A stretch of DNA of 64,000 nt from Deltaproteobacteria bacterium (GTDB taxonomy: Bacteria; Myxococcota_A; Polyangia; Haliangiales; Haliangiaceae), in the NCBI GenBank assembly GCA_026129065.1, contig JAHCIV010000002.1, forward strand, positions 1 through 64,000, written 5' to 3'. Shown one piece after another: positions 1,686-12,729 of this stretch. Under the pieces are notes generated by a model. The model did no database searches and had not been told where the DNA came from. It saw only the letters and a program-made list of their open reading frames with translations. Numbering within the stretch: the first letter of the stretch is position 1; every line of letters starts with the position of its first letter. A program made the position numbers and the translations under genes.

Positions 1686-2453
1686 ATGCGAGCTTCGTCG
1701 ACTGTCGTCATCGTGCTGTGTTCGGTGCTCGGACCGGTCGCCCTCGCGACGGCGGCACCGGATCCGAAGACGGATCCGAAGGCGACGCCACCCGCACCGA
1801 CGCCGGCGCCGCCGCCCGCGCCGACGCCGAGCCCGCAGCCCGATCCGTCGACGGTGCCGCCCGGTGACATGCCGACGCCGGTGCGCATGCGCCGCCTCGA
1901 GCAGCGCACGCAGGCGCTGAAGGAGCGCGCGTGGCAGCTGAAGGCGCGCGTGCAGATGCTGAAGGAGCAGATGCTCGGCGGCGGCGTCGGCGCGCAGACG
2001 CTGATCGCGCACGCGAACGAGATGGGCAGCTCGTTCCGCCTGATCAAGCTGATCTACAACCTCGACGGCACGCAGGTGTTCGTCCGCACCGACGAGTCCG
2101 GCGAGAGCCTGTTCAAGGCGAAGAGCTTCGACATCTTCTCGGGCCCGATCGCTCCCGGCAACCACACGATCACCGCCGTCGCCACGTACCGCGGCCATGG
2201 CTACGGCGTGTTCGAGTACCTGTCGAAGTACACGTTCACCGCGAAGGGCGCGCAGGCGTTCACCGCCGGTGAGGGCAAGATCGCGAAGGTCGACTGCAAG
2301 GGCTTCGAGAAGGGCGGCCCGACGACGCCGCTCGAGAAGCGCCCCGCCGTCGAGTGCAAGGTCCTCCAGGTCACGCCGGAGAAGCCGGCGGACAAGCCGG
2401 CGACGGCCCCGACGCCCGCGCCCACGCCCGCCGCGACCGAGCCGGGGAAGTGA
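1686..2453 (+). CDS. Secreted protein with a signal peptide, a Pro-rich linker (PAPTPAPPPAPTPSP), a short coiled coil and a C-terminal beta-rich domain. First gene of the Glt/Nfs-like envelope cluster.
   Basis: ORF track. N-terminal MRASSTVVIVLCSVLGPVALATA signal. GC3-rich. Located 3 bp upstream of the next gene. Confidence 0.6.
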   Translation: MRASSTVVIVLCSVLGPVALATAAPDPKTDPKATPPAPTPAPPPAPTPSPQPDPSTVPPGDMPTPVRMRRLEQRTQALKERAWQLKARVQMLKEQMLGGGVGAQTLIAHANEMGSSFRLIKLIYNLDGTQVFVRTDESGESLFKAKSFDIFSGPIAPGNHTITAVATYRGHGYGVFEYLSKYTFTAKGAQAFTAGEGKIAKVDCKGFEKGGPTTPLEKRPAVECKVLQVTPEKPADKPATAPTPAPTPAATEPGK

Positions 2454-2456
2454 GCC

Positions 2457-11435: not shown

Positions 11436-11475
11436 GTCGCTAGGTTTTTCGTCGGCCGGGCGCGTTGGTAGGCGT

Positions 11476-12729
11476 ATGCCTTCGCCACGTGCGCTCCGCG
11501 TCGGTGTGATCCTGCGCGATGTTCTCGTCGAGGAGCGGCTGTTCCTCGACGTCGATCGCCTCCCGGTGACGGTGGGGCAGAGTCTGCGCTGCCGGCTGTC
11601 GATCCCGGCCGACGGGGTACCGCTGGAGCGGGTGCTGTTCGTCGTCGACGAGGGGCGCTTCGTGCTGGACGGCAAGGTCGTCGAGCACGGGGCGCGCGGC
11701 AAGCTGCGGCTCGGCGAGGCGACGATCTTGTATCAGGAGCTCGCGGCACCGCCGGTGGCGGCGCGGCCGCGGCTGCCGGCGTCGCTGCGCGGGACGCTCC
11801 TGGATCGCGTCGACAAGCGGCTCGCCGTCGTCCTCGGCGCGTCGCTGCTCGTGCACCTGGGCCTCGGCGTCGGCGCGTGGGTGATTGGGGATCCCGAGCG
11901 AGAGCCGGTGACGTTCCAGGACGAGGAGCAGACGTTCACGGCGATCACCTACGCGGATCCGGTCGCGATCGAGCTGCCGCCGGAGAAGCGGACGGAGCCT
12001 CTGGCAACGGAGGCGACGGAGGCGACCGAGGCGACGGGTGTCGCGAAGCCGGTCGCGCCGGAGATCCAGACGCCGCGCGCGATCGTGGATCCGCCGCGGC
12101 CGGCGCTGGCGACCGCCGAGCAGGGCAAGCGCCTCGCGGAGCTGCTGACGACGAGCGAGGAGACGCCGCGGGGCCCCGGCACGATGGGACCGCGCCGTCC
12201 GGCGGTCGACCTGGATCGGCAGGCGAAGGAGGCGCTCGCGAACGGCGAGCGGACCACGCTCGGCAACCCGGATCGCGCGAGCCGCACGGACGACACGTCG
12301 CGGCTGGGGACGACGGAGCGCACGGTCGTCGCGCAGCCCGCCGAGCTCGCGCGCACCCACAAGACGGCCGAGAAGGACGCGGGGCGCATCGACATCCGCC
12401 CGGATCCGACACCTCGGGACCCTCGCCCACCGACGCTGCGCCCGGACGACGTGCTCGCGAAGATCCGCGGCGGCTACATGACCGCCATCCAGCGCTGCTA
12501 CCTGAAGGAGCTGCGCGACCAGCCGACGCTCGCCGGCAAGGTCACGCTCGTCCTCACGGTCGACGAGCGCGGCCGCGTCGACAACGCGTCGGCGAGCGGC
12601 GTGTCGCCGGGCGTGTCGGGCTGCATCGAAGGCCTGATGTCGGGCTGGAGGTTCGCGATCCCGCGCGACCCGGCGGGCGAGCCGACGGACGCGAGCTTCC
12701 GCTTCAGCCTCCAGCTCACCCCGATCTGA
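11476..12729 (+). CDS. Second GltG/GltJ-family paralog (tandem duplicate), with FHA-like N-domain, TM helix, TEATEATEA repeat linker and AgmX-type C-domain
   Basis: Same architecture and C-terminal motif (VLAKIRGGYMTAIQRCYLKEL...CIEGLMSGWRFAIP) as 10020..11435. The 3' end overlaps rtcR convergently by 14 bp. Confidence 0.65.
   Translation: MPSPRALRVGVILRDVLVEERLFLDVDRLPVTVGQSLRCRLSIPADGVPLERVLFVVDEGRFVLDGKVVEHGARGKLRLGEATILYQELAAPPVAARPRLPASLRGTLLDRVDKRLAVVLGASLLVHLGLGVGAWVIGDPEREPVTFQDEEQTFTAITYADPVAIELPPEKRTEPLATEATEATEATGVAKPVAPEIQTPRAIVDPPRPALATAEQGKRLAELLTTSEETPRGPGTMGPRRPAVDLDRQAKEALANGERTTLGNPDRASRTDDTSRLGTTERTVVAQPAELARTHKTAEKDAGRIDIRPDPTPRDPRPPTLRPDDVLAKIRGGYMTAIQRCYLKELRDQPTLAGKVTLVLTVDERGRVDNASASGVSPGVSGCIEGLMSGWRFAIPRDPAGEPTDASFRFSLQLTPI

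Follow-up and report, generated by a model that had tools for sequence, protein, structure and literature searches.

A seven-gene Glt-like cluster downstream of obg in Polyangia: a probable paralogous envelope machine with a tandem pair of GltG-type proteins

Results

We examined a 64,000-nucleotide stretch of DNA from a Polyangia genome (Deltaproteobacteria bacterium, GenBank assembly GCA_026129065.1, contig JAHCIV010000002.1, positions 1 to 64,000; the whole stretch is called the window here), which carries near its start a cluster of seven genes, g1 to g7, related to the Glt gliding and Nfs sporulation genes of Myxococcus xanthus. An initial annotation had placed seven co-directional, tightly spaced genes at 1686-12729, directly downstream of obg, and this layout held: all seven open reading frames (ORFs) are intact and tightly packed on the plus strand over exactly these positions, and the gene on their 5' side (531-1544) encodes Obg (GTP1_OBG, E = 2.6e-59), with rplU and rpmA further upstream. 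The first gene of this cluster type, g1 (1686-2453), encodes a secreted protein of 255 amino acids with a helix and a beta-sandwich, for which there is no Glt name. It is followed by g2 (2457-4967), encoding a GltC/NfsC-like secreted tetratricopeptide repeat (TPR) protein of 836 amino acids, assigned by profile match and gene order; g3 (4967-8521), a GltD/NfsD-like periplasmic TPR scaffold of 1184 amino acids, assigned by size, TPRs and position; g4 (8535-9665), a GltE-like TPR lipoprotein of 376 amino acids, assigned by profile match and lipobox; g5 (9718-10020), a GltF-like small secreted protein of 100 amino acids, assigned by position and homologues; g6 (10020-11435), a short GltG-type inner-membrane protein of 471 amino acids, assigned by profile match and fold; and g7 (11476-12729), a tandem duplicate of g6 with 417 amino acids, recognized by paralogy and by its AgmX/PglI tail. 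The gaps at the junctions from g1 to g7 are 3, -1, 13, 52, -1 and 40 nucleotides, and the ATG of g6 overlaps the stop codon of g5 as TGATG. Third-position GC content of the seven ORFs is 0.88-0.98, as for real genes in a genome of 70% GC. A terminator scan of 1686-12729 returned no terminator-like site on the plus strand inside the cluster, and a convergent rtcR gene closes its 3' end, overlapping g7 by 14 nucleotides. A promoter scan returned no sigma-70-like site, which is uninformative in a GC-rich genome. Since the genes overlap or nearly do so and the cluster has no terminator-like site inside it, the seven genes appear to form one operon. Orthologous clusters were found in five other genomes or metagenome contigs, which rules out a chance arrangement.

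The NCBI gene calls start later than the longest ORFs for g1 (242 amino acids) and g7 (407 amino acids). Positions 1-18518 of the window differ from contig JAHBVW010000001.1 of a metagenome-assembled genome ('Deltaproteobacteria bacterium ACE_MYX2') by 109 substitutions and 0 indels (99.41% identity), and this other record is therefore a near-identical variant. Close protein relatives are mostly annotated as Kofleriaceae, Myxococcota, among the best 120 matches listed.

Relatives of the cluster, on contigs or genomes labelled L002 to L007, were compared gene by gene. In two Kofleriaceae contigs (L002 and L003), obg is followed by g1 through g7, the tandem pair included. A more distant Polyangia genome (L004) carries rplU-rpmA-obg and then g1-g6, and a distant contig (L005) carries g1-g6, both without g7. 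In L006, where the g3 homologue has 25-28% identity, the order is mglB-mglA, then g1-like, C-like, D-like, E-like and F-like genes, then MotA_ExbB, ExbD and ExbD, and last a G-like gene; L007, which is as distant, has the run from a g1-like through a G-like gene with the same MotA_ExbB-ExbD-ExbD triad. Using BLASTP, each of g1-g6 matched the syntenic gene in L004-L007, with E-values of 1e-44 to 1e-64 for g1, 1e-6 to 1e-16 for g5 and 1e-30 to 1e-59 for g6. Since the G proteins of L004 and L006 match the NCBIfam model of GltG at ~1e-55 and the AgmX/PglI C-terminal model myxo_SS_tail at 109-115 bits, these intermediates connect the cluster firmly to the Glt models. By these comparisons, the set g1-g6 downstream of obg is a conserved feature of Polyangia. 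The greater part of this cluster type had already been catalogued: Table S3 of Luciano et al. 2011 lists, for Haliangium ochraceum, Hoch_6494 (823 amino acids, GltC), Hoch_6495 (1202, GltD), Hoch_6496 (422, GltE), Hoch_6497 (120, GltF) and Hoch_6498 (490, GltG). The order is that of g2-g6, which have 836, 1184, 376, 100 and 471 amino acids; orthology of the two sets is suggested by order, size and taxonomy, and the 2011 table holds no counterpart of g1 or g7.

Further genes accompany the clusters in some relatives. In L006 (5622-23666) the G gene is followed by genes for a 308-amino-acid protein, a cNMP-binding protein and a giant FG-GAP/beta-propeller protein, and L007 (6495-23642) repeats the L006 run from the g1-like gene onward; these three genes, conserved between the two, may be further parts of that machine. 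L003 has a second, diverged g5-like copy, x1 (9368-9703), 39% identical to g5, and an extra ORF of 116 amino acids between its g6 and g7 (11540-11890), so small components appear to duplicate in the Kofleriaceae lineage as well.

The proteins were searched against Pfam and against NCBIfam (18,950 models), in which the equivalog cut-offs are 450 bits for GltC, 225 for GltE, 650 for GltG and 450 for GltJ. Pfam sees TPRs alone, in g2, g3 and g4. Read by eye, g1, g2, g3 and g5 begin with signal peptides and g4 carries a lipobox, and these features are conserved in the orthologues. The g2 protein consists of N-terminal TPRs (residues ~50-305; TPR_6, TPR_2 and ANAPC3 in Pfam), a long helical charged middle and a Pro/Gly-rich tail. 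Its best NCBIfam match is gliding_GltC (9.2e-13; 47.8 bits vs a cut-off of 450), and it aligns over its full length with L006_g2 (E = 2e-46), which itself matches GltC at 3.7e-20. The lipobox of g4 reads FAAAC|SGG, with the Cys kept in 6 of 7 orthologues, and the best NCBIfam match of g4 is gliding_GltE (6.6e-9; 35.2 bits vs a cut-off of 225), which L006_g4 matches at 2e-24. By these features g2 is a GltC-type protein and g4 a GltE-type lipoprotein, with TPR matches that are partly generic. The initial annotation had regarded the 836-amino-acid gene as an extra addition upstream of a gltD-like gene; profile match, the correspondence to Hoch_6494 and synteny in L006 identify it instead as a GltC/NfsC-type component.

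The g3 protein has a Sec signal peptide and YbgF/CpoB-like TPR modules, with a YbgF-type TPR as its NCBIfam match (3e-13). It lacks a lipobox, whereas M. xanthus GltD is numbered from Cys1. Its family comprises 960 clusters at 50% identity, many of which align over the full length at 25-30% identity, and distant members adjoin MotA_ExbB-ExbD-ExbD and GltG-like genes. Homologues of g3 match YbgF/CpoB and BamD TPR models; some bear the JGI name 'TolA-binding protein', and two clusters of g3 representatives comprised only metagenome entries named 'TPR' or 'TolA-binding protein'. There was no match of g3 to a GltD model. We considered whether this counts against the GltD assignment and dropped the point: none of 40 diverse g3 homologues matched such a model in NCBIfam either, and the library apparently holds none, so the missing match is uninformative.

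Neither g1 nor g5 matched a family in Pfam or NCBIfam. In g5, a C-terminal segment (...AFYVL.R...Y.W..LKQDF.P.I...V...PF) is conserved, and homologues stand at the same position in L002-L007 (E = 1e-6 to 1e-53); by analogy, this segment may correspond to the helix by which GltF docks in GltC. The layout of g1 is a signal peptide, a Pro-rich stretch, a helix (residues 64-98, window 1875-1979), a beta-sandwich-like domain (~117-229) and a Pro-rich tail. The helix is almost invariant across 50 Kofleriaceae orthologues and is recognizable in L004-L007 as L..LE.RV.ELKE.....KAR...LKE.V, and its near-invariance suggests a conserved docking helix. A structure model of low-to-moderate confidence gave a helix and an Ig-like beta-sandwich. 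From its position upstream of the C gene, g1 was also considered as a GltA/B-type outer-membrane barrel; the short beta region, the Ig-like model (at most of moderate confidence), the Pro-rich tail without a terminal aromatic residue and the absence of a family match led us to reject this. Like g2, g1 had been taken for an extra gene, a view that its presence in the clusters of distant relatives does not bear out; it is a conserved, unnamed member of the cluster family.

The last two genes encode proteins that are 36% identical over their full length (E = 3e-70), in an alignment that begins at g7 residue 2. In the g6 structure that AlphaFold2 (AF2) predicted from 53 sequences, a confident beta-sandwich with FHA fold, assigned to the cytoplasm (residues 20-135, nucleotides 10077-10424), precedes a transmembrane (TM) helix with S169-x3-H173 (residues 160-186, nucleotides 10497-10577), a disordered Pro/Gly-rich linker (residues 204-353) and a confident alpha/beta domain of the TonB/AgmX-PglI type (residues 358-470, nucleotides 11091-11429). 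In g7 the N-domain is ~34 residues shorter than in g6, the TM helix, again with S-x3-H, lies at about residues 116-137 (nucleotides 11821-11886), and the AgmX/PglI C-terminal domain occupies residues 334-410 (nucleotides 12475-12705). Both proteins thus have the architecture of the GltG type: an FHA-fold domain, a single TM helix, a disordered linker and an AgmX/PglI domain. The FHA-like and TonB-C-like domains that had been proposed for these two genes are therefore present at the level of fold. The best NCBIfam match of g6 is GltG (5e-14; 51.7 bits vs 650), with residues 21-449 on model positions 204-632. The g7 protein passes the myxo_SS_tail model (46.9 bits vs a cut-off of 40), on which g6 scores 38.3, and its next match is GltJ (1.2e-10; 41.2 bits vs a cut-off of 450).

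The S-x3-H pair in the TM helix was present in all 160 orthologues examined (120/120 for g6 and 40/40 for g7). It is the first half of the SHLS motif of TolA and TonB, which couples these proteins to TolQR and ExbBD; the second half is not conserved in the g6 and g7 orthologues, which have A at the L position. Together with this pair, the C-terminal fold is that of TonB/TolA proteins, and the orthologues from L004 and L006 scored above the cut-off of the model TIGR01352 tonB_Cterm. Where a canonical FHA domain has GR, the FHA-like domain reads IGQS by eye. This reading and the missing Pfam FHA match suggest that the domain is probably non-canonical and probably does not bind phosphothreonine.

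In a neighbor-joining tree, g6 and g7 form sister clades, both nested within the single-copy G proteins from L004 and L005, which points to one duplication in the Kofleriaceae lineage. Between genomes, g7 is 38-45% identical where g6 is ~60% identical. The g7 gene is a fast-evolving copy of g6 that is specific to Kofleriaceae. The initial annotation had described the last two genes as tandem duplicates of the same architecture and as counterparts of GltG and GltJ. The first part stands; the second does not, given the tree, the N-terminus of g7 and the absence of g7 from L004 and L005. As an orthologue of GltJ, g7 was rejected on the tree and on its FHA-like N-terminus, which stands in place of the ZnR and GYF domains.

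These comparisons bear on whether the operon is truly orthologous to gliding cluster G1 of M. xanthus, that is, an A-motility machine of Kofleriaceae with g7 as GltJ. Haliangium-group myxobacteria are reported to glide, the D-E-F-G order and the protein sizes are similar, the best profile matches are Glt models, the GltJ model gives g7 a better score than the GltG model does, and mglBA adjoins the cluster in the distant relative L006. However, the Glt-model scores of g2, g4, g6 and g7 (47.8, 35.2, 51.7 and 41.2 bits) lie about 6-13 times under the equivalog cut-offs, every one of which was missed, so these proteins are homologous to the M. xanthus Glt proteins but not orthologous, and the system is probably a paralogous Glt-like one and not the gliding G1 cluster. 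Further, g7 is a recent duplicate of g6 without ZnR or GYF domains, g6 lacks the N-terminal FHA domain that in M. xanthus GltG is modelled to bind GltI, and the gltC-like gene stands upstream, as in nfs and the core complex and unlike in G1. Neither GltH/I/J/K/A/B nor CglB genes were found among the window ORFs tested. H. ochraceum has three further Glt-like clusters, one with a GltB-like gene (Luciano et al. 2011, Table S3), and in M. xanthus itself neither of the paralogue clusters, G4 and G5, has a motility phenotype or a known function (Luciano et al. 2011). We therefore consider an orthologous gliding machine improbable. The initial annotation had left the choice between a G1 gliding cluster and a further paralogous machine; the low scores, and the lack of GltH/I/J/K/A/B and motor genes in the ORFs tested, speak for the latter.

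The TonB/TolA-like C-terminal domains of the G proteins, together with the YbgF/CpoB and BamD matches of g3 and its homologues and the 'TolA-binding protein' names, would also fit an ordinary Tol-Pal or TonB-type system for envelope integrity or uptake, or a run of generic TPR proteins, unrelated to Glt/Nfs. Among the 18,950 NCBIfam models, though, the best matches were GltC for g2, GltE for g4, GltG for g6 and the AgmX/PglI tail with GltJ for g7, so that the proposed relation to Glt/Nfs was borne out and, for these four proteins, neither generic TPR best hits nor a C-terminal domain unrelated to AgmX/PglI was found. The specific AgmX/PglI tail passes its cut-off in g7 and reaches 109-115 bits in the syntenic orthologues. 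To have an FHA-fold domain ahead of the TM helix is characteristic of GltG and foreign to TolA and TonB. TolB, Pal, TolQ/R and TonB-dependent receptor genes were not found in the ORFs tested, and the six-gene synteny is common to clusters that have their own dedicated motor triad. A reading unrelated to Glt/Nfs is thus highly improbable.

A third alternative is a machine of the Nfs kind that would transport a secreted polysaccharide across the surface of the cell or spore. The order C-D-E-F-G is that of nfsC-G and of the ancestral core complex, polysaccharide genes of the Wza/Wzc/Wzy type form a cluster 19-40 kb downstream in the window, and polysaccharide genes are also near the cluster in L002. 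The window cluster (~31837-52153) is of the Wzx/Wzy biosynthesis and export type, with MBOAT, GNAT, an initiating sugar transferase, an epimerase/dehydratase, a UDP-glucose dehydrogenase and GT1, a Wzc-like GNVR and ATPase protein (42861-45029), a Wza-like Poly_export protein (49103-49756) and Wzy_C (49763-52153). Unrelated genes separate it from the operon, however, and the adjacency is inconsistent in relatives. NfsA/B/H-type outer-membrane genes are not present in this operon. Moreover, the nfs genes are those most closely homologous to the glt genes (Luciano et al. 2011), whereas the proteins encoded here are very distant from the Glt models. A link between the polysaccharide cluster and the Glt-like operon, on the model of Nfs and Exo, is speculative, and an Nfs-like function seems distinctly unlikely.

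Overall, these results make it likely that the operon encodes the paralogous, Glt-like transducer of an envelope machine of the Glt/Nfs family, of the 'core complex' type. Several observations weigh against this assignment. The Glt-model scores of 35-52 bits compare with M. xanthus equivalog cut-offs of 225-650, and TPR matches are partly generic. The GltD assignment of g3 draws on genomic context and the 2011 table, and the structure model of g1 is of low confidence. Pfam FHA and TonB_C were undetected in g6 and g7, even with isolated domains at E = 10. MotA/ExbB and ExbD motor genes were not found among the window ORFs tested or in 5 kb upstream, and consequently an energizing partner is assumed. 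No outer-membrane barrel or adhesin gene was identified at the locus.

Beyond the operon, the rtcR gene encodes an RtcR-type sigma-54 activator (12716-14293, minus strand) and is divergent from a gene for an 844-amino-acid protein (14429-16963, plus strand) with Major Vault Protein (MVP) shoulder and vault-repeat domains. A sigma-54-like sequence, TGGCCT-N5-GTGCA, lies between the two at 14377-14392. Neither rtcB nor rtcA was seen near rtcR (window 12716-19082). In L002 and L003, abhydrolase...Pkinase genes come directly after g7, so the rtcR gene, the MVP-like gene and a gene for a 353-amino-acid protein look like an insertion in the window. Elsewhere, ORFs at 20545-22899 (784 amino acids), 40434-41804 (456) and 60251-61477 (408) have a strong coding signal and matched no Pfam family at the thresholds used.

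Discussion

The core complex of these machines consists of GltC, D, E and G together with AglRQS and is found in Geobacter, Gammaproteobacteria and Fibrobacter, while Myxococcales have several paralogous clusters: nfs (also called G3), G4 and G5 (Luciano et al. 2011). In the Geobacter core clusters the order is C-D-E-x-R-Q-S-G (Luciano et al. 2011, Table S3). This order is shared by L006 and L007, and by the window once the motor genes are removed; the window lacks the three motor genes between g5 and g6, where the stop codon of the one overlaps the start codon of the other, and its G gene is tandemly duplicated. Motor genes are normally encoded away from the core genes in Myxococcales, and in H. 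ochraceum they lie elsewhere in the genome, at Hoch_1807-1809 and Hoch_3390-3392 (Luciano et al. 2011, including Table S3).

By comparison with Agl-Glt of M. xanthus, with which the operon appears to have homologues of the C, D, E, F and G components in common, the same logic of force transduction would apply here. The g6 and g7 proteins would be TolA/TonB-like inner-membrane proteins, whose TM helix with S-x3-H and FHA-fold domain may dock on a proton channel of the TolQR/AglRQS type encoded elsewhere. Their long disordered linkers would cross the peptidoglycan, and the TonB-like C-terminal domains would bind the GltD-like scaffold g3, as TolA binds YbgF/CpoB. The scaffold would be joined by the lipoprotein g4, the small connector g5, the outer-membrane-facing g2, and g1. 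In this way, the proton-motive force could be used to move or remodel something on the surface of the cell; candidates for the surface process are gliding, Nfs-like transport of a surface polymer, or another envelope task.

The operon differs from the known systems in several respects. The published model of M. xanthus GltG has an N-terminal FHA domain (1-114), a central FHA domain (190-329), a TM helix (330-348) and a TonB-like C-terminal domain; the central FHA domain and the TM helix have been modelled on AglR5QS, and a two-hybrid interaction of AglR and GltG has been reported. The g6 and g7 proteins keep the part from the central FHA domain onward (TM helix, linker and TonB-like domain) and lack the N-terminal FHA domain. 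Compared with M. xanthus Agl-Glt, the operon also has g1 as an extra, conserved gene. Nfs shares the order C-D-E-F-G and has the outer-membrane components A, B and H, none of which is in this operon. The G4 (MXAN_1919-1923) and G5 (MXAN_1327-1331) clusters are, like Nfs, sets of Glt-like paralogues that do not contribute to motility; their gene orders are different, and their G proteins are long (749-809 amino acids), in contrast to the short g6 and g7. With Tol-Pal and ExbBD-TonB, the operon has in common a TM helix with S-x3-H, a long periplasmic linker, a C-terminal domain of the TonB/TolA fold and a YbgF-like TPR partner. It differs from them in the FHA-fold domain, in the AgmX/PglI C-terminal domain with two conserved Cys residues and in the giant TPR scaffolds, and TolB, Pal and receptor genes were not found in the ORFs tested.

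A bolder proposal, which we put forward tentatively and regard as rather unlikely, is that the obg-linked g1-C-D-E-F-G cluster represents a third functional class of Glt-like machine across Polyangia, with its own subunit g1, serving neither M. xanthus-type gliding nor spore-coat assembly; in Kofleriaceae a single motor would carry two TolA-like arms, the diverged g6 and g7. Such a class could be the gliding transducer of Polyangia, which apparently lack a complete Agl-Glt set, or a housekeeping device of the envelope.

Glt-like core complexes occur widely. What the present analysis adds is modest: one Glt-like cluster is stably linked to rplU-rpmA-obg across Polyangia; it has a strongly conserved, unnamed first subunit, g1; it retains the ancestral order although the motor genes have been lost from their place between F and G; and its TolA-like component was duplicated in Kofleriaceae, with one copy evolving fast. 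These points leave the current picture of the machines unchanged and would be of use for annotation and for the choice of targets in cultivable Haliangium or Kofleria.

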